Positions 3,027-33,206 of a DNA stretch of 36,452 bases are shown here, piece after piece. A program made the position numbers and the translations under genes. How positions within the stretch are numbered: the stretch's first letter is position 1; every line of letters starts with the position of its first letter. The DNA is taken from contig JAUIJJ010000001.1 of NCBI GenBank assembly GCA_030431385.1, positions 1 through 36,452 on the forward strand, read 5' to 3'. Source of the DNA: a bacterium. Lineage in GTDB: Bacteria; Sumerlaeota; Sumerlaeia; SLMS01. The notes under the pieces were generated by a model that was not told the DNA's origin, ran no database searches, and was given only the letters and a program-made list of their open reading frames with translations.

Positions 3027-3042
3027 GCTCAAATCAACCTTT

Positions 3043-4500: not shown

Positions 4501-4690
4501 CTTGCGACCTGTGCGATCTCCCTGATCTCGTGCGCTCGCCCCTTATGGCGACGGGTAGGCTGCATGGCGCCTCGGCGGGAGGCAATCGTTTAGCACGGCA
4601 CCATTGCCTCGCCAAAAACTCCCTTTGCCAACCGAGACCGAGTGTCATCACTCTCGCTCGATACCCTAGACGGATGCCCCCGCCCCTTCG
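4501..4690. promoter_or_regulatory. divergent intergenic region between the wzx operon (-) and the GT4/GT2 operon (+)
   Basis: 190 bp separate two divergently oriented first genes, so promoters for both units should lie here. I could not pick out convincing -35/-10 boxes. Confidence 0.4.
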
Positions 4691-7008: not shown

Positions 7009-7159
7009 GCGCGCCGGCGGCGCATTCCATGACGTTCTAATCCCCGAACACCGCGGTGCGCCGTCCTCGGAATGCGATTGACTCAGCCGGGCTGGATTTA
7101 TTTCATCGCAGGTTTAGTTGCGCCGGATAAGGGCGCAACCAGGAGAAGGGGAGTGCATT

Positions 7160-8176: not shown

Positions 8177-8211
8177 CGCAGTTCTTGCGCCGCAGGGGCG
8201 CGATGATTGAC

Positions 8212-8248
8212 AAAATGGCGTGTGCAATTGCACACGCCATTTTTCTTT
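8212..8248 (+). terminator. Rho-independent terminator after nrnA (potentially bidirectional)
   Basis: A perfect 32-nt palindrome, AAAATGGCGTGTGCAA/TTGCACACGCCATTTT (8212-8243), gives a GC-rich stem GGCGTGTGC/GCACACGCC with an AATT loop. It runs into TTTTTCTTT and begins 36 nt after the nrnA stop. Confidence 0.8.
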
Positions 8249-8341
8249 GCGCAACGCTTGCACAGAAAGCGACCCGGAACGATGTCAAACGCGGCCAAGC
8301 CCACCCTCTCTTCAGGTATCAACGGCGAAACGAAGGAAACC

Positions 8342-15966: not shown

Positions 15967-18186
15967 TTACTCCATCCCCCACATCGTCGTCTCGACATGA
16001 TCGGGGCGGACTTGCCGGATCGCGAAGAAGCGCCCCTGCGTAAACGTCGCCCCGATGCGGTTCCTCCCGCGATCACTGACTTGATCAAGCGCCGCACGCC
16101 ACGGCCCCGTGGGCTGGTCCGCATAGAACACCTGAATCAACGAGTCATCAACGCCATCAACTTCTCGATTGAGATAAGTAAACGTTAACGAAGTTGAGGA
16201 GAAGGAGCGGTCTGTATCCAGCTCCCACAGCAGCGCGATCGAGTCCTCGGGTGGGGCGAGGTTTTCCGTGATCGCCAGTGCCGCGTCTTCTCGATAGAGC
16301 GTCATCGTCGTAAAGGATGCGTCGCCGCCGGTGTACTTCACTTTCGCTCGAATGGAGGAGCCGAAGTCCAGCACGGGTGGGGTCCCGGCAACCGAGGCCT
16401 TCTTAGCCCGAGCGAATTTCGCGACGCCGTCGCCATGGACGACATAGGCCGCGCCGGTGAAGTTTCCGCCTTCGGGAACGTGGACCGGATCCGGCGCGAC
16501 GGCTGGGTTGTTGGCGTAAATCGCCGCTGCAGCGAAGTCGCCAAATCCGTCGAAATCGACATCGCCCCCCGCCTCCAATCCGAACCCGAAACCGTTCTGT
16601 GCATCAGCGCCGTGGACGACGACATCCGGCGTGTCGGTCGTGAGGTCGATGGTCCTGCCGCGGAGATCTGCCGAACCGTAGATCACAGAAATACTCCCTG
16701 CGTCGTCGCGGTCGCCGGTGGGTCCGTCGTTCATGATTGAGCCGACCAATACATCGTCGAGGCCGTCACCGTTGACGTCGCCGCAGCTCACCGAGATTCC
16801 GAGAACTGATCCGGCACCGTTTGCATCGACCGGTTCGCTGCGACCGAGGATCCGCGTCTCGCCGAGCGGCGAAGTTGCTCCGTCCGTATCGAGCGAAAAG
16901 CTCTCCCCGCCCAAGTCTGCCGCCCCCCAAATGATGTACGCCTCCCCCGTGGCGATGGGAGTTCCGCCCGGGCCGTTCGCGTTCGGAGCGGACACGACAA
17001 TATCGCCGAAGCCATCGCCATCGATATCTCCGACCGCGACGCTGTGGCCGAACCGGTCATCGATGTCATCGCCGGAGATTCGTGTCTCCCCCCAAGCCGT
17101 CGTCACTCCGCCGGTGGAAAGATCGACCTGCTGCTTCTCTAATGCTGCCGAACCGTAGACGATGAAGACTCTACCAGGGGAAGTCCCGGGAGCGAGCGGC
17201 GATGTGGCTCCGAATACGACGTCGTCATAGCCGTCGCCGTTGATGTCCCCCGAGGCGAGCGAGATGCCCGCTGCGCCGCGCATCTCGTCGCCGCTGATTC
17301 GCGTTTCACCGGCCTCGCTGAGCGGGCCGTCTGTGTTGAGATCAATGCGCCGCGCGCGAGACTGTGGCGCGCCCCAAATCACGTAGATGCGGCCAGTCTG
17401 ATCTTCGTCCAACCCTTGAGTCGGAGTTCCATCGTAGCGATCCGCGCCGGTGGAGGACATGAGCAAGTCGTCATATCCGTCAGCATTGAGGTCGCCAAAC
17501 GCCACGGAAAACCCTGCTGAATCGATCTTGTCGTCGCCGTAGATGCGCGTCTCGCGCCAGATACTGGTGAGGCCACCGGTGTTGAAATCGATTGTCTCGT
17601 TGCGAATTCCCGCGCCACCGAAGAGGAGTATCACCTCGCCGGTGGCGTCTTGGGTTTTCGAGTTGTTCAGGAACCCGTCGCCGAGAAATGCGCCCATCGC
17701 GAGGTCCGCAATTCCGTCGCCGTCGAAGTCTCCAGTCGCCACGGCGCGGCCCATCACGTCGCCGTTGTCGTCGCCGTAGATACGCGTTTCCCGCTCCAGT
17801 GAGCTCGTCGTCGCATCAAGATCATAGTCCTGCCCGCGGAGTTCCTCGCTGCCCCAGAAGACGTAGGCCTCACCGTTATCCGCATCAACGCCTTCGTCGA
17901 GATACCCGTCGCCACGGTAGACACCCACGATCAGATCGTCGATGCCATCGCCGTCGAGGTCGCCGAAGGCAATGCCGCTATGATCGCCGGAGCCGAGCAG
18001 GTCCTTGAGATCATCGCCGAGAATTTCTATGACAGGCACGGGGTCGGGATCAGCGAGGTCGATGACGGAGGGAATGGGCTCGCCCGCAGCCGCGCTGGCG
18101 AGAAGCGGGAGGGTGAGGGTGGCGAAGTAGAAGCTGCCGTACTTCATCGGAGCGTTTTCTACCTGAGTATACCGGCCGGGGACCAT
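15967..18186 (-). CDS. secreted FG-GAP repeat protein (integrin-alpha-like 7-blade beta-propeller) with a C-terminal beta-rich domain
   Basis: Seven Ca-binding-type loops are spaced about 60-70 aa apart: GDLDGDGIDDLIVG, GDFDGDGIADLAMG, GDLNADGYDDLLMS, GDINGDGYDDVVFG, GDIDGDGFGDIVVS, GDVNGDGLDDVLVG, GDVDFDGFGDFAAA. Several are preceded by ETRI(Y/S/L)G(D/R). The signal-like segment is MKYGSFYFATLTLPLLASAAAG. The start is either the ATG at 18186 (3 nt after the upstream stop) or the ATG at 18147. Confidence 0.9.
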   Translation of the reverse strand: MVPGRYTQVENAPMKYGSFYFATLTLPLLASAAAGEPIPSVIDLADPDPVPVIEILGDDLKDLLGSGDHSGIAFGDLDGDGIDDLIVGVYRGDGYLDEGVDADNGEAYVFWGSEELRGQDYDLDATTSSLERETRIYGDDNGDVMGRAVATGDFDGDGIADLAMGAFLGDGFLNNSKTQDATGEVILLFGGAGIRNETIDFNTGGLTSIWRETRIYGDDKIDSAGFSVAFGDLNADGYDDLLMSSTGADRYDGTPTQGLDEDQTGRIYVIWGAPQSRARRIDLNTDGPLSEAGETRISGDEMRGAAGISLASGDINGDGYDDVVFGATSPLAPGTSPGRVFIVYGSAALEKQQVDLSTGGVTTAWGETRISGDDIDDRFGHSVAVGDIDGDGFGDIVVSAPNANGPGGTPIATGEAYIIWGAADLGGESFSLDTDGATSPLGETRILGRSEPVDANGAGSVLGISVSCGDVNGDGLDDVLVGSIMNDGPTGDRDDAGSISVIYGSADLRGRTIDLTTDTPDVVVHGADAQNGFGFGLEAGGDVDFDGFGDFAAAAIYANNPAVAPDPVHVPEGGNFTGAAYVVHGDGVAKFARAKKASVAGTPPVLDFGSSIRAKVKYTGGDASFTTMTLYREDAALAITENLAPPEDSIALLWELDTDRSFSSTSLTFTYLNREVDGVDDSLIQVFYADQPTGPWRAALDQVSDRGRNRIGATFTQGRFFAIRQVRPDHVETTMWGME

Positions 18187-18189
18187 CGG

Positions 18190-18870
18190 CTAGCGGAAGC
18201 GAACCAGATCGGATGAGTCCACTACTTGGTCGAAATTCGAATCCTTGAACGAGTCGTCGACCGATGAAATTTGCCCGAGCAAATCAGCGAGGACGACCTC
18301 CATTGGGTCCTGTCCGGGGATCACGTGAATTCCTGTGATCTCGTCGACAGGCAGCACCTGAACAGGGTCCTGACCGATTACGGTGTCGCCGCTATCGACT
18401 CCCCTAAGCAGAATCGTGAAGGGCGCGGATGGCGCCCCGGTTTCGCTGGGAGTAAACTCAAAGTCGACGACCTCGCCGCTGGCGAAGCTCGTGTTCCCAA
18501 AAATGTCGGACACTGTGAGGTCACGTCGCCTGTTACCAGACTCACTGTCGTCTATCGCCGCCTGATTGCCCAAGGAGGGAGAGACAACGGTCGTGACGTC
18601 GTCACTGGAAGCCCATGTGTCCATCTTGCTCTCAGCGACTGAAGCGAAGTCGCCGGCTCCGTCCGGCCAACTCACCCGCACCTGAATGGCGCTCAGGTCG
18701 AGTTCGTTGTCGTAGATCGTCAGCCGCAGCTTGAGGGGCTGATCAACTTCTGCCGTCTGCTTGCCGTTGTAGTGCAGGTAAAGGCTGCGCTCCGGCGCGT
18801 CATCTCCGGCGGTTGCCAAAGAAGCGCCCAGCATCGTCGCCAGACCTAAGGTAATGAGTGTCTTCTTCAT
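18190..18870 (-). CDS. small secreted protein: cohesin-like beta-sandwich module plus a C-terminal dockerin-like Ca-loop
   Basis: The ATG at 18870 (MKKTLITLGLATMLGASLATAGDD) follows GAGGG, 20 nt after the upstream stop. Residues 58-203 (ORF numbering) are paralogous to the C-terminal module of the upstream 799-aa protein. The tail DSNFDQVVDSSDL fits D-x-N-x-D-x-x-V-D-x-x-D-L. Confidence 0.8.
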   Translation of the reverse strand: MKKTLITLGLATMLGASLATAGDDAPERSLYLHYNGKQTAEVDQPLKLRLTIYDNELDLSAIQVRVSWPDGAGDFASVAESKMDTWASSDDVTTVVSPSLGNQAAIDDSESGNRRRDLTVSDIFGNTSFASGEVVDFEFTPSETGAPSAPFTILLRGVDSGDTVIGQDPVQVLPVDEITGIHVIPGQDPMEVVLADLLGQISSVDDSFKDSNFDQVVDSSDLVRFR

Positions 18871-18890
18871 GAAAGCGCCCTCGTAGTGTT

Positions 18891-21290
18891 TTATCCTCCT
18901 GCGGAAACGCACAAGCCCGGTGCCTGAAGGCAGGGATCGATGCCAGGCGTCACGGGGAACCCGATCAAGGTATCGACCGTCAGAATCTCTATGGGGTCCT
19001 GACCGACCAAAGTGTCACCCAAATCCGCGCCCTGAAGCAGGAGGTCGAAGACCCCCTGCGTCGTCGGCTCGTACTCAAACTCGACCAGCATGCCGCTCGA
19101 AAAGCTTGTTACGCCCTGCAAATCGGCAGCGGTGATGGTGCGGTAAACGTGCCCCTGCTTTGTCAAGTCCTGCGCAGGCGACTGATCCAGTGCGGGCGAT
19201 ACGACGACTGTCACGTCCCCCCCATTCTCCCAAGCAGCTGACCCCATGGGGACGCTGCCGAGGTCGCCCGCACCCTCCGGCCAACTCAGCCGGACCTTCG
19301 TCGCGGAAATGTCGGTCGTGTTGTTGAGCAACTCCAGCCCGAGCCGCAGCGGGTCGCCCGACTGCACCGGACCGGCGGAGCTCTTAAGTAGCCGCAGCGT
19401 CGTACCCACTGGCGCCTGCGGCGTGAGGTCCGGCCCCATTGAGGTTACGGAAAGGTTTTGCAGTGTCACTTCGATGCCCGAATCGTTGTCGGAGGTATCC
19501 GAGTAGATGTAGTCGAAGGAGAGGAAAGCGGTCTCGCCATCCAGAACCTCCGGCGCCTCGAACCAAACGTGGTAAGTGCGCGGCGAGCCATCGAGCGGCA
19601 CGAGGGGGTCGGTGCCGGTGGATTCGATATTGGTGTAGGCGGAGGCGTTCAGCGATGAATCATTCATGCGCAAACGGAACGCCGGAACTTCGGTTTGTTG
19701 CGAGGGGTCCGCATTGGTGGCAACGTCGAAGGTGAAGTGATAGAGACGCCCACCCTCGAAGACGACTCCCTGCTCCGCTTCCGGTGAACCCCAGAAACCG
19801 AAGGTGGTCGTGTCGGCGTTCTTGCCGGTGGCTCCCGACAGGGAAAGGCCCGCAGTTGTCGCGCGAGAATTCGGCGAGGTTAGGAGCGTCGTGTCACGGA
19901 ACGTCCATCCAAAGTCGCCCATGCTGAAGTCGCGGGTTAGCTCGTCGCGCTCCTCGCCGAAGCCTGCCAGACTGATCTTTTCGAGGCTGACGAAATCGAG
20001 AGAAATCACGGCCTCCGGAGCATCTGTCGGGTCGAAGTTGAGGACCTCGAAATCGAGGATGAACTCATCCTCGTTCTCTGGCTGATTGAAGAACTGATGG
20101 TACTCGCGCTCGCCAACTCGGGGCGAGAACACTGCGTCGCCGGTCGAGCTGGCGACGAGCACTGAGCTCTGCTGGAAGCTTGCGGTCGAGGCGCGCATCC
20201 GAACGGTCGGCGCGAGGCGAATGTCGGCAACGTCGGAGCCAATCAGCCAGTTCGCGCGGAACAACCGGTCGTCGTCCGGAGCCGCACCGGTAATCCGCGA
20301 GCTACCGCCGATGACGAACTGCGGCGACTCCCAGAAGCTGTAGCTGTTGGTGTTGCTGGTGGTCATGATATTCAGCGCGCCGTCGCCATGGAAGCCGGTC
20401 GCATCAGGGAACGCGCCGGGGAGCAGGTAGGACCAGCCTTCTGCGTCATCGTCGAATGTGAATTCAATGTAAGGGAAGGGGTCCGGCGTTTCCGTCGGCG
20501 TGACGGTCGGCGTCGGGGTCGCCGTAGGCGTCATCGTCGGTGTATCCGTCGGCGTCATCGTTGGGGTCGCGGTAGGCGTCATGGTCGGTGAGGGAGACGG
20601 AGCCGGCGTGGGGGTACAGGACGGCGACATGGTTTGAGTTGGCGTTGGCGTTCGTGTCATCGTCGTCGTCGGCGTCGGCGTTTCGGTCATGGTCGGCGTG
20701 GGAGACGGCGTCGGTGTCGGAGTAGTTGCGCTGACGATTTCGAATGTGATCGAAGTGTCGATGTTTGCTGAGGTCTGCTGCACGCCACCGTCGCAGATCA
20801 GAACCGGCTGGGAAAACGGATTCGTCATCGGTCGGCCCTCGATTGTGATCTGCGATCCAACCGCGAGTGGCGTCGGAATGGTGAAGGTCAGCTCATAGAT
20901 CATCACATCGCGTGCCGTGTCGTCTGTCTGGACGCAACGAGCCGAAGTAAAGTTGCGCGAGACAAAGCCAGCGGTCTCCGCGAAGGGCGCCTGATCCAGC
21001 GGCGGGTTGAACGCGGTAATGCTCAGCCCCACGTCGGGGGTGTCCATCGCGGCGACAATCTCAACAGTATCGGGAAACAGAAGGTTATGGGCGAAGCCGC
21101 CGACGGCGCATTCCATGTCGCGCGCGCTGACCAAAAAGGAAAAGGAAGTCTCCCCTTCCAGAATGTCTGTACCCGCATTGGTGGCCTCGAAGAAGACTTC
21201 AGGAATCGGGCCGGGGCCGCGATCCTGAGCCGAAAGCCCCCCCGCAAGTGCTAGGAACGTAATTGCCAAAAGTGATACCAACTTGTTCAT
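18891..21290 (-). CDS. secreted multi-module protein: signal peptide, cohesin-like module, Pro/Thr linker, two tandem copies of an unknown ~165-aa domain, second cohesin-like module
   Basis: 799 aa. The signal peptide is MNKLVSLLAITFLALAGGLSA/QD and the start is preceded by AGGTGAGGA. Module boundaries come from my residue count. The cohesin-like assignment is by pattern (alternating hydrophobic beta strands such as FSFLVSARDMECAVGGFAHNLLFPDTVEIV and MIYELTFTIPTPLAVGSQITI) and is tentative. Confidence 0.85.
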   Translation of the reverse strand: MNKLVSLLAITFLALAGGLSAQDRGPGPIPEVFFEATNAGTDILEGETSFSFLVSARDMECAVGGFAHNLLFPDTVEIVAAMDTPDVGLSITAFNPPLDQAPFAETAGFVSRNFTSARCVQTDDTARDVMIYELTFTIPTPLAVGSQITIEGRPMTNPFSQPVLICDGGVQQTSANIDTSITFEIVSATTPTPTPSPTPTMTETPTPTTTMTRTPTPTQTMSPSCTPTPAPSPSPTMTPTATPTMTPTDTPTMTPTATPTPTVTPTETPDPFPYIEFTFDDDAEGWSYLLPGAFPDATGFHGDGALNIMTTSNTNSYSFWESPQFVIGGSSRITGAAPDDDRLFRANWLIGSDVADIRLAPTVRMRASTASFQQSSVLVASSTGDAVFSPRVGEREYHQFFNQPENEDEFILDFEVLNFDPTDAPEAVISLDFVSLEKISLAGFGEERDELTRDFSMGDFGWTFRDTTLLTSPNSRATTAGLSLSGATGKNADTTTFGFWGSPEAEQGVVFEGGRLYHFTFDVATNADPSQQTEVPAFRLRMNDSSLNASAYTNIESTGTDPLVPLDGSPRTYHVWFEAPEVLDGETAFLSFDYIYSDTSDNDSGIEVTLQNLSVTSMGPDLTPQAPVGTTLRLLKSSAGPVQSGDPLRLGLELLNNTTDISATKVRLSWPEGAGDLGSVPMGSAAWENGGDVTVVVSPALDQSPAQDLTKQGHVYRTITAADLQGVTSFSSGMLVEFEYEPTTQGVFDLLLQGADLGDTLVGQDPIEILTVDTLIGFPVTPGIDPCLQAPGLCVSAGG
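20478..20726 (-). repeat. low-complexity Pro/Thr-linker coding repeat (residues 189-271 of the 799-aa protein)
   Basis: It encodes TTPTPTPSPTPTMTETPTPTTTMTRTPTPTQTMSPSCTPTPAPSPSPTMTPTATPTMTPTDTPTMTPTATPTPTVTPTETPDP. The DNA shows imperfect 24-nt periodicity (MTPT[A/D]TPT units, e.g. ggcgtcatcgtcggtgt / ggcgtcatcgttggggt on the plus strand). Confidence 0.85.
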
Positions 21291-23550: not shown

Positions 23551-23643
23551 GGAGAGGTGGCCGAGTGGCTTAAGGCAACGGTTTGCTAAATCGTCAGACC
23601 GCTAACAGCGGTCTCGGGGGTTCGAATCCCCCTCTCTCCTCCA
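23551..23643 (+). tRNA. tRNA-Ser (anticodon GCU), class II with a long variable arm and genomically encoded CCA
   Basis: Hand fold: acceptor GGAGAGG/TCTCTCC (one G-U pair); D arm GCC..GGC; anticodon stem ACGGT/ATCGT with loop TTGCTAA (anticodon GCT); variable arm GACCGC-TAACA-GCGGTC; T arm GGGGG-TTCGAAT-CCCCC; then T-CCA. Confidence 0.93.
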
Positions 23644-23718
23644 CTTACCTTTCTTACATTATCGCTGACGATCGCTCGGAGCACTCCGGGCCTTGGCCCG
23701 TTATGTTCGTCGTTTGCT

Positions 23719-25773
23719 TTAGAAGATCACCCAGCTCTCGAAGTCGGAGGTCGGGGCGTCTGCCTGTACGGGGTTCGACCCTTGATCCTGCTCGTCGATG
23801 TTGAGGATGCCGTCATTGTCGAAGTCGCCATTGGCGTCTTGATCGAGTCCTCCGAAGTAGAAGAACTCCCAGTCGTCGTCTAGCATATCCATGTCGCTGT
23901 CCACAGCGGGCGGAACCGGCGGCAACTGATAGCCGACGACGTTCGCAATTCGAACCGGGAGCGGATCGCTGTCGTGGTTGTCCACGTCGACGAGTCCCTC
24001 AACAGTGATGATCGTCCCCGGGATGTAGGCTCCCATGAGCCCCGAGAGGCGGTAAGTCGTGGCGTCCTGCTGAAGGAGGAAACCGAATTCATCAATCGTG
24101 AGGGGGCCTTCGAGTGTCGTAATCGCCGGCGGAATCGCCGCAGCGAATGCCGCCGCGCTTGTGGCGACCAACGGGAGGTTTCCCACCCGGACTCCATCGG
24201 GAATCAACATCGGGTCGACCGAGCGGCCAGCGAAGTGATCTGCCAGCAGTTCAAGCATTGAGACACGTCCCGGCGTCGTTGAAAACCGGAGGTAATCGCT
24301 CACCAAATCCAGCATGGGCACCGTCACGGAGCTCGAAATCAGATCGTAGATTTCCGCCTCGTTCATGGTCGCGCGCAGATCGAAGACGATTGAAGCTTCA
24401 GGCCCCGCGCCCGGGGTGCCGGGAGTGAACTCTTCGCCTGTTAACTGCTCGTAGTAGAGGTTAAGAAGCAGCGCCTCGGCGGTGGTTCTAGCGTTCAGAA
24501 CTTCGCCGGCGGATGTATCAAAAATCCGCGCGTCGTAGATCGCGCGATAGGCGTCTCGCCAGTCCTCGAGGTCGAAGGCATCGCTGCACAAATCGATGAT
24601 TGGATCGATGCGAAGGCTTTGCGGCTGTTCCAGACCAAGCAGTACGCGACCGCTGCCGTCCTGGGCGCGGGCTCGAATGTAATGGAACTGCTCTCCGGAA
24701 GTTCGATAGGAAAAGGTTCCATCGTCAGTTTCCAGCCGGTGCGAAAGCGCTTCGCCGCCTGGCGTCAAGACATCCACCCGGAAGGTCGTTGGCCATGGCA
24801 GTTCCGGATCGGGAGTCAGCGGTGGAGGGCTCGCGCCGGCGGTGGTCTCTTGAATCTCTCCGCTTCGAAAGATTTCGACTGTTTTCAAATTCGGCGCGGC
24901 TGGGAAGCTGTCAGGGTCGTTCGCGTCAGTCCCGCGAAGATTCTCGTCCTCTGTGCTCCATGAGTCATTGTCTGGGTCAACCCACCCGGGGGGCAGGTCG
25001 TCTGGATCGTTGGGAATGAACGCATCCGTCCCGCGCAGAAACTCATCCAGATCATCGAGAGTGTTTCCGTTGAAGTCGCCCTCCGCCCGAAGCGGGTCCA
25101 AGCCAAGTTCGATTTCGATGCGGTCGGGGATATTGTCCTGATCGGTATCGACGCAAACAGGGCCTCCGAAGAGGTACGTAGCGATCTTAGCCGTCCCCAT
25201 GATCATCCCATCATTGCCGCGATAGGAAACGATGCTGTCCTTTGCGATGTGAATCGACTCCCCCGCATATATCATCGGCGGAGATCCATTGACCGAATAG
25301 GTAATTGCTATTCCGGCCTCTGGTGCATGGAAGGAGAGGTTCACTGTCGTTTCATAAAACCCGCCGGGAGGATTCACCTCGACCCGAAGTGGATCATACA
25401 CACCTGCGTCGCCAAAGTACGCAGTCGCTTTGGTGGCGCTGCGCTGGTTGCCGTAAACATGGTACTGTGTTGCAGGGAGTGGGAGCGGTATGTCCACATC
25501 GAGAGGCCCAAATGCCAAGAATCCCGCGCTGGGGTCTGGGTCGAGTCGGCCGACCTCAACGTTAAACCCATCGTAGGCCCCGACGCTGGTCGTATAGCCT
25601 TCTACCAATCGAGAATCAACAACCCGCGGCGAAGGATCATCAGTCACGGATGAATCGTAGACGACGACGTTCGCAACGGGGGCGTCGGCGAAGGAAATTG
25701 TGCCTGCGCCCACGAAGAGTGCGGCAGCGAAGCTCGCCCTGAGTGTCTCTTGCATGTACCTGTTCATTCGCAT
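23719..25773 (-). CDS. large secreted protein (684 aa) with acidic thrombospondin-type-3-like Ca-binding repeats; third gene of the giant-protein operon
   Basis: The signal-like N-terminus is MRMNRYMQETLRASFAAALFVGAGTISFADA. Acidic repeats are CVDTDQDNIPD, DPDNDSWSTEDENLRGTDANDPD and DQDANGDFDNDGILNIDEQD. The segment FYETTVNLSFHAPEAGIAITYSVNGSPPMIYAGESIHIAKDSIVSYRG resembles the chitobiase/hexosaminidase C-terminal-like beta-sandwich. The start lies 6 nt after the upstream stop. Confidence 0.85.
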   Translation of the reverse strand: MRMNRYMQETLRASFAAALFVGAGTISFADAPVANVVVYDSSVTDDPSPRVVDSRLVEGYTTSVGAYDGFNVEVGRLDPDPSAGFLAFGPLDVDIPLPLPATQYHVYGNQRSATKATAYFGDAGVYDPLRVEVNPPGGFYETTVNLSFHAPEAGIAITYSVNGSPPMIYAGESIHIAKDSIVSYRGNDGMIMGTAKIATYLFGGPVCVDTDQDNIPDRIEIELGLDPLRAEGDFNGNTLDDLDEFLRGTDAFIPNDPDDLPPGWVDPDNDSWSTEDENLRGTDANDPDSFPAAPNLKTVEIFRSGEIQETTAGASPPPLTPDPELPWPTTFRVDVLTPGGEALSHRLETDDGTFSYRTSGEQFHYIRARAQDGSGRVLLGLEQPQSLRIDPIIDLCSDAFDLEDWRDAYRAIYDARIFDTSAGEVLNARTTAEALLLNLYYEQLTGEEFTPGTPGAGPEASIVFDLRATMNEAEIYDLISSSVTVPMLDLVSDYLRFSTTPGRVSMLELLADHFAGRSVDPMLIPDGVRVGNLPLVATSAAAFAAAIPPAITTLEGPLTIDEFGFLLQQDATTYRLSGLMGAYIPGTIITVEGLVDVDNHDSDPLPVRIANVVGYQLPPVPPAVDSDMDMLDDDWEFFYFGGLDQDANGDFDNDGILNIDEQDQGSNPVQADAPTSDFESWVIF

Positions 25774-25779
25774 AGCGGG

Positions 25780-28700
25780 TTATCCAGGGATGATGATGCT
25801 GATTTGAAATGGTTCACGCACGTATTCGATCTCACCGGTTTCGTCGTCGAACTGCATGAAGAGATAGCGATAAGTCGCATCCTGAACGTGCCCAGAATCA
25901 CGATCTATAAAGAATAGATCAAAGTCCATCGTTGACGGGTTTTCGATATACTCAAAAAACGCGTCGTCCAGTACCATGCCGTTTCTGTTGATCGACTCGA
26001 TTAGCGGCGAGACAGCGATCCATGGCTGGTTCGGTTTGTCAACACGCTGGCGCCAAACCATAAAGGGCATCGCCGGGGTTGTGTAGTAATCAATACCTGC
26101 CTCGGTGCCGCCTCCTTCCAATATCTGGAGGGCGACGCCGCGAAGCGCACCGGATACGATGATTCTGCTAGGAGTGTAATCAATCACAGGAGGCAGTGGA
26201 CGCGCGTTCCATCGAAAATCCCCGGGGTCAGTCGCACCGTCGTTGAATGCCTTCGAAGCCCAAGTGAATGGTACGCGGTCGCTTTCCTTTGAAGCCCCAC
26301 TAATCGAAACCGCCTCGACGAAGACCTCGTAGTTGGTATTCTTATCTAGCGGATCGCCGTCACGATTTACTTCATCCACTGAGAGTGAAAACTCATTCAA
26401 TGTTTCGTCGTAGTTCAAATCGGCGATGCGGTATTCCTTGGGGCGCGCTTGCTTCTGGCCGTCGACCACAAAGTGAACAGCATAGTATTGAATGCCCGCT
26501 TTGGGCCCAATCCAATTCAAGGTAACGGACGGCGTCCCCAATCCGGTCGCGGTTGCGGAGATCAGCGTCGCGCTGGGAATCGTTCCCATATAGACGACAA
26601 TGGGCTGGAAGTATTGGGGCGAACCCAGATTGCCGTGCTTGTCGAGTGGGACGATTGAGTAACAAGCTTCCGTCGCGCTCTCTGGATGAAAGTTGTCCTT
26701 GAGAGCGAGCGAAACCCCGTCGCATGGAACCTCTTCAACCAACTCGTAGGTTTTGCAACCATCAACACTGCGGTAAAGGCGGTAACCCACTGCGTCGCCG
26801 TCGCAACCCATTGTAATCTGGAATGGTGCCATGTCGCCACCAGGGATCACTGGGACGAGACCCGGCCCTGTCTCATTCGGGCCGAGGGGGTCGCAGACCA
26901 AATCGTAGGAAGCAACTGTTGCCTCGAATCGATAGACCTGACGCGGGCTTCCGTCTTCCCAGAATGACGGAGGATCCACTGTAACAGTCGCCGTCGCGCC
27001 ATCCAAGGTCTCCGCGACGAATCGATAGGACGGAACGTCGTCCTGGTCCACGACGGATTCAAGTGGTTCCGCGTAGTAGGTAACCTGGTCGTTTGCAAGA
27101 AAATCGAACTCATAGAGTATACGCTCGAAAACAAGCTGGCCGTTTTGAGTGCGCTCGTAGAAGCGGCCCTTGGCGATAGACGGATGATCACGGCGGGCAG
27201 TCAGAAGCGGCGCCCATTCCGACTCGCGCGTGTCTGCCTGATCGACGACATTTCCAAATGCCCGAATCACGGGCCGTGAAATGCAAAACTCCGTGATACG
27301 CCCGGGAGCGGGGCCAACAACATCATCCAGTACGCCGTATACTGCTGGAGAAAGCGCGCTTTCGTTTCCGTGCTCATCGAGCGCCGAGACCGAATACCAA
27401 AACCCGGTACCCAACGCGGCGGAGTTCGGTTCGTAGTCCGCGTGATTCACCTTCGGAGCATCCGGAACGGCAGGCGCAGGAACTGTCGCGATCAAACCCT
27501 CAGTCAGACCATTAACATCAGAGAAGGGCCCTTTCTTAGCGGCATTCCCGTAGTTCTGATAGCGGTAAACCTTGTAGGCAACGGCGTCAGGTCCGAGATT
27601 GTCCCACATGACGGAAAGGTAAGGAACGTGGTCGGTGTCTTGAGCGGCAACTACGAAGACGCCCTTTACCATATCGGGTTCGACCGTGTCTCGGACGACT
27701 GCGACCACCGGGTTGCTAGGAAGCCCTTCGTTGCCGAGTAGGTCACGCGCAACTGCCCAGTAAGTACACGTATCACCCACTGTTAGGAGATCATCCTCAT
27801 CGAGCGTCTCTAGCCAGTCACCATCATCTGCATAGATGTATGTTTGATCAGGGTCTTCGTCCTCGATTGGGGAAGGTTCGAGAATGGGAACGCGGTTGAG
27901 CCGTACTAGCTCATTCTTCACCGTGTCGAAATCTTCGCCCGCTTCCAATCCGCGTGCGAGTTTGTAGATATTGAATCCGAAGGAGATCGTTGAAAACTCG
28001 ATCGCAGACTCTGCGACTTCCCAGTTCAGGTAGACGCGACGGTTCGCAGCCCGAGCTGGCGTGACGCCGTCGCGGCCCCGGAGGAACACCTCCTGAAGAT
28101 TTACAGGCGCTGGCAGTTGCACGACGTTCTGTACATCGACAGTGATCTGCCCTAGTGCATCCACTGGGTTGCCGGCGTTGTCACCTTGCCAAAGCTCATA
28201 AACGTAAGGCCCACTAGCGGGGTCGACGAAGTCGAGGTAACCGAGGCCCTCGACGAGTGCGAACCCATAGTTTGATTGAATCATGAAGGTGTGTTGCGCG
28301 CCCTTCGCGTCGGCGTTGTCCTCACCATCCAATGCGGCGATGACGCGTTGCGCGAACTCGTCCTGTGTGGCTGAGGGCGATCCGTGAATGCGAACGAAGT
28401 ATTCCTCAGCGGCATTGAGCGCGCGCTCCTCGCCAGGACGGTAGAAGATGCTCTTGATGAGTGTCGCGCTCCGAGTTCGTGATACGACGGAGACTTTCTC
28501 GCGATTGTTTGCGCCGTCCGTGCGGAAGATGACCGCGTTGGTCAGGTCTACTACGCCATCAAGTGTATCCCAGCGGAGCAAGACTCGCCGCCCCCAATCC
28601 TCATCGCCGCCCACGACTCCAGTAAAGTATACTGGAATGAGACTCGGTTGTGTCTGCGCCTGAAGTGCGGCTCCACCGGTCACGAGCGAAAACGCAACCG

Positions 28701-28806
28701 TGAGCACAGCGATAAGGAGTCGGCATTTTCCACCGATGTGTCCTGGTTTCGGGTAGCTGAAGCTCGCCCGATCTGAGCTATAAGTGTCCAAGTTATTCGT
28801 CTCCAT
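25780..28806 (-). CDS. large secreted protein (1008 aa) with several Fn3-like beta-sandwich modules; second gene of the giant-protein operon
   Basis: The hydrophobic signal-like segment is CRLLIAVLTVAFSLVTGGAALQA/QT. Fn3-type end-of-domain signatures recur: YWAVARDLLGNEGLPSNPV, WYSVSALDEHGNESALSPAV, YSIVPLDKHGNLGSPQ, YEVFVEAVSISGASKESDRV. Matching Y-x-hYR strands also recur: YKVYRYQ, YRLYRSV, FNIYKLA. The start lies 6 nt after the upstream stop, with AGGAA overlapping that stop. Confidence 0.85.
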   Translation of the reverse strand: METNNLDTYSSDRASFSYPKPGHIGGKCRLLIAVLTVAFSLVTGGAALQAQTQPSLIPVYFTGVVGGDEDWGRRVLLRWDTLDGVVDLTNAVIFRTDGANNREKVSVVSRTRSATLIKSIFYRPGEERALNAAEEYFVRIHGSPSATQDEFAQRVIAALDGEDNADAKGAQHTFMIQSNYGFALVEGLGYLDFVDPASGPYVYELWQGDNAGNPVDALGQITVDVQNVVQLPAPVNLQEVFLRGRDGVTPARAANRRVYLNWEVAESAIEFSTISFGFNIYKLARGLEAGEDFDTVKNELVRLNRVPILEPSPIEDEDPDQTYIYADDGDWLETLDEDDLLTVGDTCTYWAVARDLLGNEGLPSNPVVAVVRDTVEPDMVKGVFVVAAQDTDHVPYLSVMWDNLGPDAVAYKVYRYQNYGNAAKKGPFSDVNGLTEGLIATVPAPAVPDAPKVNHADYEPNSAALGTGFWYSVSALDEHGNESALSPAVYGVLDDVVGPAPGRITEFCISRPVIRAFGNVVDQADTRESEWAPLLTARRDHPSIAKGRFYERTQNGQLVFERILYEFDFLANDQVTYYAEPLESVVDQDDVPSYRFVAETLDGATATVTVDPPSFWEDGSPRQVYRFEATVASYDLVCDPLGPNETGPGLVPVIPGGDMAPFQITMGCDGDAVGYRLYRSVDGCKTYELVEEVPCDGVSLALKDNFHPESATEACYSIVPLDKHGNLGSPQYFQPIVVYMGTIPSATLISATATGLGTPSVTLNWIGPKAGIQYYAVHFVVDGQKQARPKEYRIADLNYDETLNEFSLSVDEVNRDGDPLDKNTNYEVFVEAVSISGASKESDRVPFTWASKAFNDGATDPGDFRWNARPLPPVIDYTPSRIIVSGALRGVALQILEGGGTEAGIDYYTTPAMPFMVWRQRVDKPNQPWIAVSPLIESINRNGMVLDDAFFEYIENPSTMDFDLFFIDRDSGHVQDATYRYLFMQFDDETGEIEYVREPFQISIIIPG

Positions 28807-28812
28807 AGTTTC

Positions 28813-31800
28813 CTACAACTTGCACTGCGCGCTGTGATCGACTGACCAGCCGTTTTTGTAAGTGGCCTCCAACCAGAGAACACAGGTCGCGCACCACTTG
28901 TCGGCCCAAACGTCGTCGACGTTAAACCATTCCTCCGGTTCACAGAACCCGATTCCACCAGCAACCCAACCGGTACCCCGGAAGAAGTAACCACCAGCTT
29001 CCTTGCCACCGATGAGCACCAGTTTCCCGCGTACGCTCACGAGGCACAGTCCCTCACCGTAAACGCCAGCGGTTAGCTTGCCGCCGTAGGACGGGCCTTC
29101 GACAAAGTACCAGAAACCCGCACCGGCGGTGGCACCAACACGAAGCAAGCAACTGTAATCGACAATTGGAATCGCTGCCTCACCGAATGAATAAATGCCG
29201 GTGATGACCTGTTGCGTAAACAAGCCACCAACCTCGGGGTCGATTGCCTCGAGAATCTCGACTCCACTACAAGTTCTCCCGAGGAAGATTCCGCCTCGCA
29301 TGCTGACTTGATTGAAAACAATACCACCAGAGAACGCGATGTAGTTCTCGTTCAACCCCACACCGGCAGCGAACGACGGTGAGAGCACCTTGACCGCCTC
29401 GAAATCCAAGCTGCCCGATGTCTCGATCAGGCCTGCGATATCTGATACGAAGAACGGGTCATCAGGAGCGTTCTGATTCAAGCGCAGCATCAGCGCGATT
29501 TGGTCAGCGCGGAGTTTAGAACGCGGGAACCTGAGTGGGATGTCGTACACTGCGATCTTAACCTTGATCGACTCAGCCCCTGCGGGCGTTCCGCACACTG
29601 CGCCGTTGGAGTTGTTCTTGAACCTCTCCATGTCCAGCGATCCCATGAAAGAGAAATCCTCATCGGGAATCTTCAAACTGAAGTCAGCGTCTACGTGTAG
29701 CCGGTCGAGGGACTCACCACCGAAAACCGCGTAGCCACTCAGTTTTGCAGCGGCGACACCAGTCACGTCGTTGATCGGCTTTGTGATATCATCAAGCGCA
29801 CCACCGACGAGATCGATGTACGCTTTCACCTGATTGTTGAGCGAATCGAAGAAACCATTCAGAATGTTCTGAATCTGCATCTTGAGCGGCTCGAAGATTT
29901 GCGCCACAATTTGGTTCACTGCCTGGAAGAAGAACGCGTTATAGATCGTATTAACAACTCGCGTGTTGACCATCTCTGGGTCGAGATTACGAACAGATGC
30001 TGCGTTGTTTTTGAGTTCGTCGATCAGATTGTTGAGCTCTGTCCTGACCTCAGCCATTGCATCAACGAATTCTGCACCGTCGACAAGGTCTTGAATTTCT
30101 GGGATGGTACCGAGATTATCAAGTTCTGTGCGCAGCATTTCCAGCTGGGGTTTTAGCTGCCCGTTAATGAGTTCCGTGATGATGTATTGCCGGGCGGCTT
30201 CCACATCGCCCAGAACCTGCTGGACACCGGTCGGGTCAGCGCCGGCAAGTTCAATGAGAGCGACAAGAATGTCTTCGACGGCCGCAGGATCAAGAGTCTC
30301 AATTTTGGACTCGACGTTTTCGAGAGCGGTCAGAACCTCATCGATCTTTCCGATAATCGGGCCAGTGTCACTATCCAGTTCGTTCTTTAGAAAGTTTTCC
30401 AACAATCCAATGCGGTTGTTGATCAGCGTTTCGATTGCGGTGATTTCCCCTGCGTTCAGCGCGCCTTCTGCATTCATTGCTGCTGAGCGAATCTGGTTCA
30501 CCATATCGGTAACGGTCGGGCGTGTTAAGTCCTCCATGCCTCCGCGAATGGCCTGACCAAGACTGCCTGACAGTGCGCCGTTCACAGAATTCATGTTATC
30601 CTTGATAGGCATCATGAGCGCCTGAAGCGCAGGGTCCGCGAGGTCTTCCAACAAGGAGCTCACATTGATCGCCGGAATACCAAACTCGGCGGCGAACAAG
30701 ACTTCCGTATCAGACTTTGTGATACCGCGGACGCTCGAATTGATTTCGAGGACGACGAGGTCTCGGCCTTCTTCCTCGCCAGCCGCAGTGGCAAATCGCC
30801 GCGAAACGTTGTTGTACTTTACACGATAATCGAGCGGGATCACGTTGGCGAAGCTCGCCTTCACGAGGGGCCGAAGATCTTCCTCTTCGAGGTATTCTGC
30901 AACAGTTGAAATCCCCGCAGGGAACCCGTTGCGGTCTGGGTCGATGTCGACAATCGGCGATTGGGCATAGGGGCGACCATCGAAGACCTGCGGGATCACT
31001 CCAGTATCATAGAGAGCAACCACTGGAGTCGCGCCCCAGAATGGCAGCTTCATATCACCAACGACGACAGTTTTGCCGTTGATACCCATGCCGCCGTCCC
31101 ATGCCGAGTAGTACATCTTGCGCATGGTGAATGGCCAGCTTTGGAGAGCGTTGCCAGCTTCCGCTGCGATCTCGTTATCAATGATATCGCCATCGCCTGC
31201 AAAGTTGGTATCGACCAAAAGCGCCTTTTGTAGCTCGGGAACGGAGTTGGAGCTTTGGGTCCAAAGCGTTCGCAGCGGCGTGCCGCAACTCGAGGCCACC
31301 GGATCGCCCATTCCATTGAGGACATCGCGGAATTCCATACCTCGGAACTTGAACGAACGATTCCAATAGGCAAGGGTGTTTTCGAACGTCTCGATCTTTG
31401 CCGTACCCGGGCTGCCGCACGAGTCCAATTCCATCGAGTTGAAGTCGAAACTCACGTCGGACGGAAATGGCAGATCAAGAGTACCGTCGATCGCGCTATC
31501 CTGCCATTGTTTGTTATCTAACAGGGTGATGTTGAACTTGGTGAGGCTCGTTTCGTACTGACCGTAAAGCATCAGCGGGGGAAGGTTAGTGATTGACGCC
31601 TGCGAGGCATCGAGACACCCGCTAACACCACCGCCGCGGACATAAATTTTTGTTCCCGGAGATGCGCTGAATGGTGCGTTCTCGCAAGCCATGAGTACGC
31701 TAAAATCCGTGCCGGTCAATTCGCCTTGATCGAATGTCAAACCAGCGTAGTTACCAAAGCCCTCAGTGTACTCCTGTTCAGGGAAAGTAACAAACACCAG

Positions 31801-32949
31801 ATCGTGAGTACCAGCAGCGATTCGACCAGCGAGTAGGTAGGTACTCGGTAGCAGGTTTTCGAGGTCCGACTCGCCAGCGGTCTTCACACCGGGAACATAC
31901 ACAACGCCATCGGCATCGATAGGTCCAATTTCGTAGGCATCGAATTCCAGATCGATATCAGAAGCCATGGAGGCATCCGGGGCACCAAGCAGTGCCCAGT
32001 CGTCGGCGAGCTCGAAGGTCACTGGCCCCGTTGTGAATGATCGCTGAGCGGCTCCAGCGTCGCATGGGTCGCTGGCGTAAGTGACTCGCACGCCGCCGTC
32101 CGCTTCGACAGTCGCGCTGGAGATCGAGTTGTCGCTGTAATCAATCGTCCAATCCACATCGCGCAGCTCGTGTCCATAGGGGAAGGCCATGTCGTAGTTC
32201 GCGTTGGGCGCGATCTGGTGCGCTTGAAACTGCAATCCGGTGGGAGTCACGATCGCGTGAGTGTCCATCCCGGCTTGCATCATCCAGCCAGAATTGGTCG
32301 GTCGCGGGCCGGGCGCGGCATTGAATTCTACGAGAAAGTCGTGCTCCATAATGGAGGAAGTCAGAGTAAACCCGACGGCATCGCTAAACGTGGCGACGCC
32401 GAGCACATTGATCGAGAAGGGCTCGTTTTCGACCTTTATCCGGTCGAGCACGCCGGGGAGGGGGATCTCGTCACGTATTCCAGCGTTTTGGCCAAGGAAC
32501 ACCTGACCCAGATCATAAGTCCCTTCAGAGAAGAAAAAATCCGAGTCATCCTCTTTGTAGAGGAGACCATCGGGGAGGACGACATCAACGGAAGCCAAAC
32601 ACCCCGAGGGAGTCAGCACGACGCCGGAAGATTCGAACGACCAGTTTGATCCAGGGGCCTGATAAGGCTGTGGGAAAGTGAGACCGACGTTTCCAGCGCT
32701 GACGACCAATACTGTATCATTCAGAGGCGAAACCGAGAGAGGGCCGACCGGCAAGTTCGAGATCGGTCCCCAACTGATGACACCGTTGAACGTGCCCCCG
32801 GGGGCCGTTCCTGATTCAATGTCAGTCTCGATGGTTCCGAACCGCAAGATCGTTTGGCTGATTCCCGCCTGAGTGCCGAGGGGGACGAGGCAGAGGGCAA
32901 ACAGGCAATACAGTACCAGTGCGCATGAGTGGCGCCGAGAAGAGTCCAT
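28813..32949 (-). CDS. giant secreted hypothetical protein (1378 aa); first gene of the giant-protein operon
   Basis: The longest ORF in the window starts at an ATG. The signal-like N-terminus is MDSSRRHSCALVLYCLFALCLVPLGTQA/GI. The protein is tripartite: beta-type Gly/Pro/aromatic-rich (aa ~30-760), helical (aa ~765-1065), then a Gly/aromatic/Cys-containing C-terminal region. No catalytic or named domain recognised. Confidence 0.85.
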   Translation of the reverse strand: MDSSRRHSCALVLYCLFALCLVPLGTQAGISQTILRFGTIETDIESGTAPGGTFNGVISWGPISNLPVGPLSVSPLNDTVLVVSAGNVGLTFPQPYQAPGSNWSFESSGVVLTPSGCLASVDVVLPDGLLYKEDDSDFFFSEGTYDLGQVFLGQNAGIRDEIPLPGVLDRIKVENEPFSINVLGVATFSDAVGFTLTSSIMEHDFLVEFNAAPGPRPTNSGWMMQAGMDTHAIVTPTGLQFQAHQIAPNANYDMAFPYGHELRDVDWTIDYSDNSISSATVEADGGVRVTYASDPCDAGAAQRSFTTGPVTFELADDWALLGAPDASMASDIDLEFDAYEIGPIDADGVVYVPGVKTAGESDLENLLPSTYLLAGRIAAGTHDLVFVTFPEQEYTEGFGNYAGLTFDQGELTGTDFSVLMACENAPFSASPGTKIYVRGGGVSGCLDASQASITNLPPLMLYGQYETSLTKFNITLLDNKQWQDSAIDGTLDLPFPSDVSFDFNSMELDSCGSPGTAKIETFENTLAYWNRSFKFRGMEFRDVLNGMGDPVASSCGTPLRTLWTQSSNSVPELQKALLVDTNFAGDGDIIDNEIAAEAGNALQSWPFTMRKMYYSAWDGGMGINGKTVVVGDMKLPFWGATPVVALYDTGVIPQVFDGRPYAQSPIVDIDPDRNGFPAGISTVAEYLEEEDLRPLVKASFANVIPLDYRVKYNNVSRRFATAAGEEEGRDLVVLEINSSVRGITKSDTEVLFAAEFGIPAINVSSLLEDLADPALQALMMPIKDNMNSVNGALSGSLGQAIRGGMEDLTRPTVTDMVNQIRSAAMNAEGALNAGEITAIETLINNRIGLLENFLKNELDSDTGPIIGKIDEVLTALENVESKIETLDPAAVEDILVALIELAGADPTGVQQVLGDVEAARQYIITELINGQLKPQLEMLRTELDNLGTIPEIQDLVDGAEFVDAMAEVRTELNNLIDELKNNAASVRNLDPEMVNTRVVNTIYNAFFFQAVNQIVAQIFEPLKMQIQNILNGFFDSLNNQVKAYIDLVGGALDDITKPINDVTGVAAAKLSGYAVFGGESLDRLHVDADFSLKIPDEDFSFMGSLDMERFKNNSNGAVCGTPAGAESIKVKIAVYDIPLRFPRSKLRADQIALMLRLNQNAPDDPFFVSDIAGLIETSGSLDFEAVKVLSPSFAAGVGLNENYIAFSGGIVFNQVSMRGGIFLGRTCSGVEILEAIDPEVGGLFTQQVITGIYSFGEAAIPIVDYSCLLRVGATAGAGFWYFVEGPSYGGKLTAGVYGEGLCLVSVRGKLVLIGGKEAGGYFFRGTGWVAGGIGFCEPEEWFNVDDVWADKWCATCVLWLEATYKNGWSVDHSAQCKL

Positions 32950-33206
32950 GGGTGCTTCACCAATATCCTAGTTGGGCGGAGTGACCCGCGTTGTGTTCCA
33001 AGGATGCTATGTTAAGGTTGATTGAATTGTGGTGCGGGCGAAACCGCCTGTCAACTCAATCCCGCAGATTTTGTTTCACGCACCAACAAAATTGTGGCGC
33101 AACGTGGCGCGCTGCTTTTCCTTAAGCGAGTCCGATTGCGCTGCGGCTTTGGAGCGGTGCACAGTCCTCTCTGATTTGGCGATTCTTCGGCGTCGAGGAG
33201 ACGGAC
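32950..33206. promoter_or_regulatory. divergent intergenic region between the giant-protein operon (-) and the PLP-enzyme gene (+), containing an 8-bp inverted repeat
   Basis: 257 bp separate two divergently oriented first genes, so both promoters should lie here. It contains ATTTTGTT-N9-AACAAAAT at 33068-33092. AGGAGA lies 7 nt upstream of the 33207 ATG. Confidence 0.45.

Follow-up and report, generated by a model that had tools for sequence, protein, structure and literature searches.

What do three adjacent genes encode when their large products fall into no described family? The genes, here named A, B and C, lie on the minus strand of the window, the whole stretch of 36,452 nucleotides that was analysed (positions 1 to 36,452 of contig JAUIJJ010000001.1, assembly GCA_030431385.1, from a bacterium of the Sumerlaeota). 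They form a real conserved module and are not a local oddity. We see an even chance that their three products make up an undescribed cell-envelope or cell-surface complex, anchored in the outer membrane of diderm bacteria (Sumerlaeota and Verrucomicrobiota) and encoded by one operon. The general class to which such a system would belong, an outer-membrane barrel protein with extracytoplasmic domains and partners, is known, while the three-family module is in no library searched and has no informative public name. An earlier reading of the window's letters, referred to as the original prediction, had reported three minus-strand open reading frames (ORFs) with spacers of 6 nt between stop and start codons. 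Its coordinates, ORF lengths and spacers are exact:

28813-32949, minus strand: gene A, an ORF of 1378 residues with a signal peptide-like start, a beta-rich N-terminal region, a helical domain and a C-terminal beta domain of 16 predicted strands
25780-28806, minus strand: gene B, an ORF of 1008 residues with a signal peptide-like start and a conserved mature N-terminus, mostly an uncharacterised beta-type protein
23719-25773, minus strand: gene C, an ORF of 684 residues with a signal peptide-like start, an N-terminal beta region, acidic repeats, an uncharacterised core of ~330 residues, a second acidic block and a W-x-x-F end
28807-28812, minus strand: A/B junction, 6 nt, TAG-GAAACT-ATG
25774-25779, minus strand: B/C junction, 6 nt, TAA-CCCGCT-ATG

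The spacing suggests that the three genes may share a single transcript and be translationally coupled. ATG 28806 was taken as the start of B, as no other in-frame start keeps the hydrophobic core; with this start, B has an unusually long n-region of 27 residues. Each of A, B and C has full-length homologues, and they are hence real genes rather than chance ORFs. BLASTP detects no similarity among the three. None of them reaches the cutoff of any family in Pfam, NCBIfam, PHROG or PADLOC, and their Verrucomicrobial homologues gave nothing at or above any cutoff in the family libraries either. A phage or defence origin was rejected, given that the PHROG and PADLOC scans are without a family at its cutoff. 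Two views of the original prediction, that the largest protein has no nameable family and that no catalytic motif is present, agree with these scans, in which A stays below every cutoff and no enzyme or catalytic family is detectable in A, B or C.

A word-indexed search found five relatives of A, 18 of B and eight of C, the named ones being from Candidatus Sumerlaeia. Their contigs have the same order of a large gene, a gene for about 1000 residues and a third gene, with unrelated flanks, and the genome GCA_020444065.1 harbours two paralogous trios. By BLASTP, every one of these third genes is a homologue of C, with 25-52% identity across about 650 residues. A scan of one genome per GTDB species with an alignment of B returned 52 loci. 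Specifically, four or five are from Sumerlaeota, about 40 from Verrucomicrobiota and one from a metagenome-assembled genome (MAG) labelled Limnocylindria, and several are on apparently mis-binned contigs. The carriers in Verrucomicrobiota include Verrucomicrobiaceae, Prosthecobacter, Akkermansiaceae, Limisphaerales, Opitutales, Puniceicoccaceae and Pedosphaera. The trio was counted by running family hidden Markov models (HMMs) against all ORFs of all loci. All 41 loci that reach 4.5 kb or more upstream of B contain A, 41 of the 43 that reach 3 kb or more downstream of B contain C, and 36 of the 37 loci covered on both flanks contain the complete trio. The order and strand of A, B and C are invariant across the loci and the flanks are unrelated; no universal fourth gene was found at the trio loci. 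The junctions mostly range from -4 to +45 nt, with a 4-nt overlap being most frequent between B and C. Strict co-occurrence, fixed order and short junctions at ~20-30% identity in at least two phyla argue that the three proteins work together. The synteny check on related genomes proposed by the original prediction thus came out strongly in its favour. What did not stand is the implied confinement or rarity of the system, as an exhaustive profile search assigned 696 representative clusters at 50% identity to family A, 387 of them at E<=1e-30. The members of these clusters are mostly 1750-2200 residues long, and the sources that name them give only "hypothetical protein".

The module therefore comprises three large families that are always encoded together and have no Pfam or NCBIfam model, with hundreds of divergent A members across Verrucomicrobiota and Sumerlaeota, two phyla whose cell envelopes are poorly understood. 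An obligate module of about 3000-5000 residues is a substantial investment and likely a major envelope or surface structure in these bacteria. As it is found on contigs assigned to Prosthecobacter, a genus with cultured species, the hypotheses below are open to experiment. Separately, Verrucomicrobia-type trios were seen at seven loci (L021, L023, L030, L042, L050, L052 and L058) on MAGs labelled Akkermansia muciniphila, Beijerinckiaceae, Bifidobacterium/Bifidobacteriaceae or Cyanophyceae. These labels are probably binning errors.

Predicted architecture of protein A

The structure of A was predicted with AlphaFold (AF2) from a 48-sequence alignment including new distant relatives. The model covers residues 179-1378 with a mean predicted local distance difference test score (pLDDT) of 84.9 and a predicted template modelling score (pTM) of 0.58. 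Three regions follow the signal peptide-like start:

30682-32865, minus strand: A residues ~29-756, beta-rich N-terminal region by AF2 secondary structure, with conserved Cys296 and Cys555
29767-30663, minus strand: A residues ~763-1061, all-helical amphipathic domain by AF2 and hydrophobic moments, with eight long helices (13-62 residues) and two short ones
28816-29757, minus strand: A residues ~1065-1378, putative outer-membrane barrel with 16 long antiparallel amphipathic strands by AF2, six conserved Cys and a beta-signal-like end

Eight Cys of A are conserved in more than 95% of the members, six of them located in the C-terminal domain; Cys296 is found in 104 of 107 and Cys555 in 101 of 103 members. 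The eight residues fit an oxidising, extracytoplasmic location. In the model, a 62-residue helix (residues 991-1052) and a low-confidence linker directly precede strand 1 of the C-terminal domain. Weak matches to tape-measure proteins, JetA and arcadin all fall on the helical domain and were judged compositional.

The C-terminal domain is modelled as a meander of 16 strands, which are 10-17 residues long and joined mostly by turns of 2-4 residues. We then inspected the coevolution of its strands by mean-field direct-coupling analysis (DCA) of 181 family-A sequences. All 15 consecutive hairpins coevolve, with ladder scores of 0.25-0.61 compared with 0.13±0.06 for non-adjacent strand pairs, and Cys1336 covaries with Cys1353. 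The strands follow a strict dyad pattern of hydropathy. The hydrophobic face is composed of 67% aliphatic, 21% Gly, 6% aromatic and 2% charged residues at the strand centres, and 24% of the residues at its strand ends are aromatic. Even at the strand centres, charged or polar residues account for 39% of the opposite face. These statistics are of the membrane type, having an aliphatic belt, aromatic girdles and a polar lumen.

The family's C-terminal end was compared with the beta-signal recognised by BAM (beta-barrel assembly machinery), whose consensus is ζxGxx[Ω/Φ]x[Ω/Φ] (PMC10945584). In most family-A members the chain stops exactly five residues past a conserved Trp, with the sequence ...G-x-W-x-[VA]-[DN]-[FY]-COOH. 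The last position (-1) is Phe or Tyr in 45% of the sequences and aromatic or hydrophobic in 66%; 75% have a hydrophobic residue at position -3, 54% Trp at -5 and 50% Asn or Asp at -8, and Gly is located at -7, not -6. The family-A C-terminus thus appears close to the published consensus. In structural searches with Foldseek, A has weak but repeated matches to porins of 16-18 strands, LptD and phage-encoded outer-membrane protein models, with probabilities up to 0.97 and target-normalised TM-scores (TMt) of 0.30-0.39. A Foldseek search against BFVD gave nothing significant, only weak matches to tail fibres and outer-membrane proteins. On balance, the model and the statistics favour an outer-membrane barrel as the probable identity of the C-terminal domain.

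Several observations weigh against this assignment. The TM-scores to 16-strand porins are only 0.30-0.35 with root mean square deviations (rmsd) of 12-15 Å, and the best Foldseek matches of A are lipid-transfer proteins, not outer-membrane proteins. Strands 1 and 16 do not coevolve (ladder score 0.06 versus a background of 0.13), strand 16 being without any strong partner; as it has no strong partner at all, this test is uninformative on barrel closure. The connections are mostly 2-8 residues long on both sides of the sheet and include only three longer loops of 14-22 residues, unlike typical porins. The six Cys conserved in more than 95% of the members add to these points. Finally, the window's A ends in ...AQCKL, which is not aromatic, and has a 6-residue Cys-containing extension ending in Leu. 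Such a short C-terminal tail is a feature of the Sumerlaeota branch to which the window belongs, and the tail Cys co-occurs with an extra Cys at position 1356.

In layout, A resembles four known classes: OmpM/SlpA-type proteins, LptD and, as discussed further below, type 5 secretion proteins and large lipid transfer proteins, the last at the level of whole-protein architecture. OmpM/SlpA-type proteins of diderm Firmicutes and Deinococcus-Thermus have a periplasmic domain, a helical stalk and a C-terminal barrel, which in OmpM has 16 strands (PMC10628300). A likewise combines an N-terminal domain, a helical part and a predicted 16-strand C-terminal barrel in one polypeptide, but the likeness is only one of analogy. 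A shares no sequence similarity with these proteins and has no SLH domain match in Pfam or NCBIfam; its multi-helix domain of ~300 residues differs from their short trimeric coiled coil; and it has an N-terminal beta region of ~730 residues, two obligate partner genes and a different lineage distribution (the Planctomycetes-Verrucomicrobia-Chlamydiae group and Sumerlaeota). LptD, too, has a large N-terminal extracytoplasmic domain, a C-terminal barrel and conserved disulfide-forming Cys like A with its predicted barrel, and is matched weakly in Foldseek (E 0.026-0.4). However, LptD has 26 strands, an LptE plug and the OstA/LptD Pfam signature, none of which was detected for A. Should A indeed be an outer-membrane barrel that carries a giant extension of helices and beta structure, it would present a new architecture among outer-membrane-anchored complexes.

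Proteins B and C and a possible assembly

A, B and C each contain one N-terminal hydrophobic segment and no further transmembrane-like segment. By heuristic reading, the N-termini of all three families resemble Sec signal peptides that end just before the conserved mature N-termini, which agrees with the signal-peptide-like start noted for each product in the original prediction. The segment of A is as follows:

32866-32949, minus strand: signal peptide-like segment, A residues 1-28 (MDSSRRHSCALVLYCLFALCLVPLGTQA, followed by G), with a hydrophobic window at residues 6-30 and equivalents in most family members (heuristic)

A, B and C would accordingly be exported by Sec. A lipoprotein reading was rejected, there being no lipobox and no conserved N-terminal Cys. 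All three proteins are strongly acidic (pI 4.05-4.36), which results from depletion of Lys and Arg. The same depletion is common to the window's other exported proteins, unlike its cytoplasmic enzymes; an acidity of the halophile type, which would be proteome-wide, was rejected on this ground.

B has about 50 distant relatives besides its 19 close homologues. Its mature N-terminus, QTQP..P[VL][YF]FTG, is conserved and directly follows the signal peptide, and at its C-terminus is a conserved strand whose end is typically Pro (Pro-Gly in the Sumerlaeota branch). One module could be located:

26266-26553, minus strand: weak FN3-like module, B residues 752-847 (Pfam fn3, E=7.8e-4, 20.0 bits versus a gathering cutoff of 25)

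fn3 is weakly matched in seven of the 19 B-family members, a profile search of the PDB with B gave sub-threshold FN3 matches in two regions (E 0.04-1), and one relative (P0018) is named "fibronectin type III domain-containing protein" by NCBI. The FN3-like character seen in B by the original prediction is hence weakly supported and stays below the gathering score. HMM and jackhmmer searches detected no internal sequence repeats in B, and a motif-based guess of five to six FN3 modules, finding no support in them, was dropped.

C is characterised by acidic motifs in two blocks:

24943-25149, minus strand: three invariant DxDxD..D..E motifs (TSP3-like loops of the Ca-binding type), C residues 209-277 (D209/211/213/217/E220, D233..E244 and D266..E277)
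23791-23901, minus strand: two further acidic motifs of the Ca-binding type, C residues 625-661 (D627/D633/D634/W635/E636 and D650/D652/D654/G655/E661)

These five invariant motifs, along with weak TSP3_bac matches, support the acidic Ca-binding repeats described by the original prediction. TSP3_bac matches two of nine close C members below the cutoff (best E 1.7e-4), and the C protein of locus L025 scores 23.9 bits versus a cutoff of 25. C also contains a weak CHB_HEX_C-like stretch, and long versions of C have about 370 extra N-terminal residues with FG-GAP-like repeats. The end of C varies with lineage, being W-x-x-[FY] in Sumerlaeota and [FY][FY]R...L[KR][KR] in Verrucomicrobia. When shallow and deep profiles of all three families were searched against the PDB, A gave only matches of helical composition and B only the sub-threshold FN3 matches, while TALE-repeat matches of C were treated as spurious. 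One C homologue (P0034) has an insertion of ~220 residues with dockerin-like and cohesin-like features just before the conserved W-x-x-Y end (alignment columns ~690-920).

An assembly can be proposed from these elements. After Sec export of A, B and C, as their signal peptides suggest, BAM would insert A into the outer membrane via its last ~315 residues, the 16-strand meander of the model, stapled by conserved disulfides. The helical domain of ~300 residues and the beta-rich region of ~730 residues would project from the barrel, pointing either towards the periplasm (compare OmpM/SlpA- and LptD-type proteins) or, like an autotransporter passenger, towards the surface. The projection might serve as a platform for the soluble partners B, with its FN3-like modules, and C, with its Ca2+-binding acidic repeats and, in long versions, an FG-GAP propeller. 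Ca2+ binding by the acidic repeats of C, together with the conserved disulfides, could stabilise the assembly. Strongly acidic and stiffened by Ca2+, the resulting assembly would either link or extend the envelope or bind external or hydrophobic material. As no enzyme signature is found in A, B or C, a structural, tethering or binding role is likelier than catalysis.

This proposal has its own weak points. The analysis itself establishes how the genes are arranged and conserved, their synteny, the domain layout and the membrane-type statistics of the C-terminal domain of A, and from these we infer export, insertion into the outer membrane, binding among A, B and C, their co-transcription and their function. 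B and C lack any recognisable signal for the outer membrane or for sorting (beta-signal or known sorting tail). A periplasmic location of B and C is just as possible as an extracellular one. The original prediction had seen no C-terminal anchor or sorting tail in any of the three proteins; this holds for B and C and is probably wrong for A, given the predicted 16-strand amphipathic domain and the beta-signal-like end. Its general idea of a dedicated extracellular or surface assembly survives as an envelope or surface assembly, which is still the best general reading, without the extracellular place of B and C or the adhesive fibre, matrix or layer that it named.

Lipid-transfer proteins and other alternative readings

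A Foldseek search of the PDB with the A model gave four matches at E<=1e-3, all of them large lipid transfer proteins (LLTPs):

ApoB100 (9ea7): E 1.7e-6, probability 0.92
honey-bee vitellogenin (9enr_A): E 1.1e-4, probability 0.57
ApoB100 (9e9r): E 1.4e-4, probability 0.66
MTP (6i7s_G): E 4.9e-4, probability 0.23

Further ApoB fragments and clusterin are lower in the list. The lipid-binding module of LLTPs is composed of an N-sheet, an alpha-helical subdomain and large A and C sheets, which form a lipid cavity, and LLTPs are regarded as an animal innovation (PMC12214520). A has a similar order of beta region, helical region and large amphipathic beta-sheet, as well as amphipathic apolipoprotein-like helices. 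A could therefore be read as a soluble periplasmic or secreted lipid binder built like ApoB, vitellogenin or MTP, in which the beta region and helices wrap amphipathic sheets having a hydrophobic cavity or lipid-facing belt. The partners B and C would then act as accessory or receptor subunits of a module that shuttles or packages lipids or other hydrophobic material. Aside from the four matches and those listed below them, this reading draws on the resemblance of the tight-turn amphipathic meander to the ApoB beta-belt, on a pTM of 0.58 that suggests packed domains, and on the lack of a closure signal between strands 1 and 16 together with an unexpected coevolution signal between strands 5 and 12. 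The helical domain contributes as well, as its 112-sequence profile matches exchangeable apolipoproteins in the PDB (ApoA-IV at 2e-6, ApoE at 2e-5 and ApoA-I at about 1e-4).

The same profile, however, matches designed helical bundles, an Mce/MlaD-domain protein and coronavirus spike HR1 equally well. That the apolipoproteins sit beside designed bundles points to amphipathic-helix composition and not to homology. The structural matches to LLTPs have query-normalised TM-scores (TMq) of 0.06-0.09 and an rmsd of 36-60 Å over more than 1000 columns. By sequence, no Vitellogenin-type Pfam model matched at E<=1, no LLTP chain was found with 9- or 112-sequence profiles of A, and a literature search found no bacterial LLTP relatives. 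Whatever its ancestry, an amphipathic meander next to a helical bundle is expected to align in 3Di with the helical domain and beta-belt of ApoB, and the LLTP likeness was thus treated as architectural; the match of the model is at the level of architecture at best. A terminal aromatic residue and aromatic strand ends around an aliphatic belt are hallmarks of BAM substrates, which would be unexpected in a soluble lipid carrier, and the view of LLTPs as an animal innovation also speaks against this reading. LLTPs are also without partners resembling B and C. We thus regard the soluble lipid binder as unlikely.

Since lipid-transfer proteins are the only significant structural matches, A may still have a role in handling hydrophobic material. 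One such scenario combines both lines: A, embedded in the outer membrane, would be a true structural relative or convergent equivalent of animal LLTPs and, with its two partners, would handle lipids or other hydrophobic material by binding or packaging them or by moving them across or outside the envelope. This combination is speculative and its probability low. If the likeness to ApoB, vitellogenin and MTP were true, it would bear on the origin of lipid-transfer proteins and offer a bacterial counterpart to LLTP-type lipid handling.

The order of a Sec signal, a large N-terminal region, a helix and a predicted C-terminal barrel is also that of type 5 secretion, in which adjacent partner genes occur as TpsA/TpsB. 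A might accordingly export itself or its partners, with the C-terminal barrel as the translocation pore threaded by the helix before strand 1, the N-terminal regions as a surface adhesin and B and C possibly displayed too. The position of the helix at residues 991-1052 and of the low-confidence linker suits such a pore, Foldseek returned weak matches to CdiB (E=0.42), and the modules of B and C are common in surface proteins (FN3-like, FG-GAP, TSP3-like, CHB_HEX_C-like and the dockerin/cohesin-like insert in P0034). TSP3 repeats, though, also occur in the periplasmic parts of OmpA-like proteins. Moreover, no Autotransporter, Omp85/Bac_surface_Ag, POTRA or ShlB-type domain was matched in the window's proteins or the Verrucomicrobial homologues, and the predicted 16 strands compare with 12 in classical autotransporters. 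The would-be passenger is not a beta-helix, the helical part consists of 300 residues instead of a single linker helix, and three components are encoded in place of one or two. When the helix was considered as a plug in the barrel, its coevolution with lumen-facing residues was not enriched. A type-5-like exporter is hence unlikely too, and an outer-membrane-anchored envelope complex remains preferred.

It is very improbable that the trio encodes exported proteins that share an operon yet function independently, such as unrelated adhesins or binding proteins, or a secreted multi-component toxin with a ClyA-type membrane-inserting helical domain: the three-gene organisation and weak matches of the helical domain to MakA, XaxB, AhlC, SmhB, ClyA and Cry6Aa speak for it, but the strictness with which the genes co-occur across phyla at 20-30% identity, in one order and with short junctions, argues for an obligate joint function, all Foldseek matches to alpha-pore-forming toxins are above E=0.03 and limited to the helical domain of A, Pfam detects no Tc/Rhs or MACPF domains, and toxins are not typically spread so broadly, and apparently vertically, among free-living lineages of the environment. 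In tripartite ClyA-type toxins, the three proteins are paralogues of about 350-450 residues. A, B and C, by comparison, share no similarity and have 684-1378 residues. As identities of the trio, ClyA-type tripartite toxins, Tc toxins, phage modules and defence systems were all rejected.

Surroundings of the trio

The divergent region upstream of A predicted earlier is real; it is 257 bp long and spans positions 32950-33206. The features on both sides of the trio are:

33026-33054, minus strand: promoter-like site upstream of A, TTGACA-17-CACAAT, with 10 of 12 consensus matches (candidate only)
23687-23700, no strand assigned: GC-rich palindromic hairpin CGGGCCTTGGCCCG, 19 nt past the stop of C and before tRNA-Ser
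23551-23643, plus strand: tRNA-Ser(GCT), convergent with gene C

A consensus scan found promoter-like sites at the level of chance in the region scanned, and the site at 33054-33026 is therefore only a candidate. The hairpin, located between C and the tRNA gene, could be a terminator for either direction, a role that is unproven because no minus-strand T-run accompanies it. The G+C content is 0.535-0.576 over 25001-32000, which covers most of the trio, compared with ~0.58-0.62 in 16-25 kb and 32-36 kb.

Genes next to the trio differ among the loci. In a subset of Verrucomicrobial loci, a sigma factor of the extracytoplasmic function type (~260-310 residues) and a Ser/Thr kinase (~660-1060 residues) are encoded directly upstream of A on the same strand, as seen at L027:1486-4294 and equivalent positions in L035, L036, L051 and L053. 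The pair suggests lineage-specific regulation of the trio. In L003 (positions 3263-9472), from the Sumerlaeota genome GCA_964437365.1, the trio is preceded by genes for a phycobilisome-protein-like domain (PF00502), a ferredoxin-dependent bilin reductase, two V4R proteins, a protein kinase, two CbiA-like ATPases and a 2Fe-2S ferredoxin, a cluster unexpected for a lineage regarded as heterotrophic. L004 (1506-2726) and L005 (1395-2615) each have an encapsulin (Linocin_M18) and encapsulated-ferritin-like gene pair ~2.5 kb upstream of a divergent trio.

Elsewhere in the window, positions 15967-21290 of the minus strand hold a second run of exported, very acidic proteins (pI ~4.05). It contains a 799-residue ORF (18891-21290), a 240-residue ORF (18190-18912) overlapping it by 22 nt, and a 739-residue protein with six FG-GAP repeats. 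None of them is related to A, B or C by BLASTP. The 240-residue ORF shares a domain of 146 residues with the C-terminus of the 799-residue protein at 45% identity. Positions 171-7008 encode a polysaccharide-biosynthesis set composed of a nucleotidyl transferase, a DegT aminotransferase, an NAD-dependent epimerase/dehydratase, a flippase, and GT4 and GT2 glycosyltransferases.

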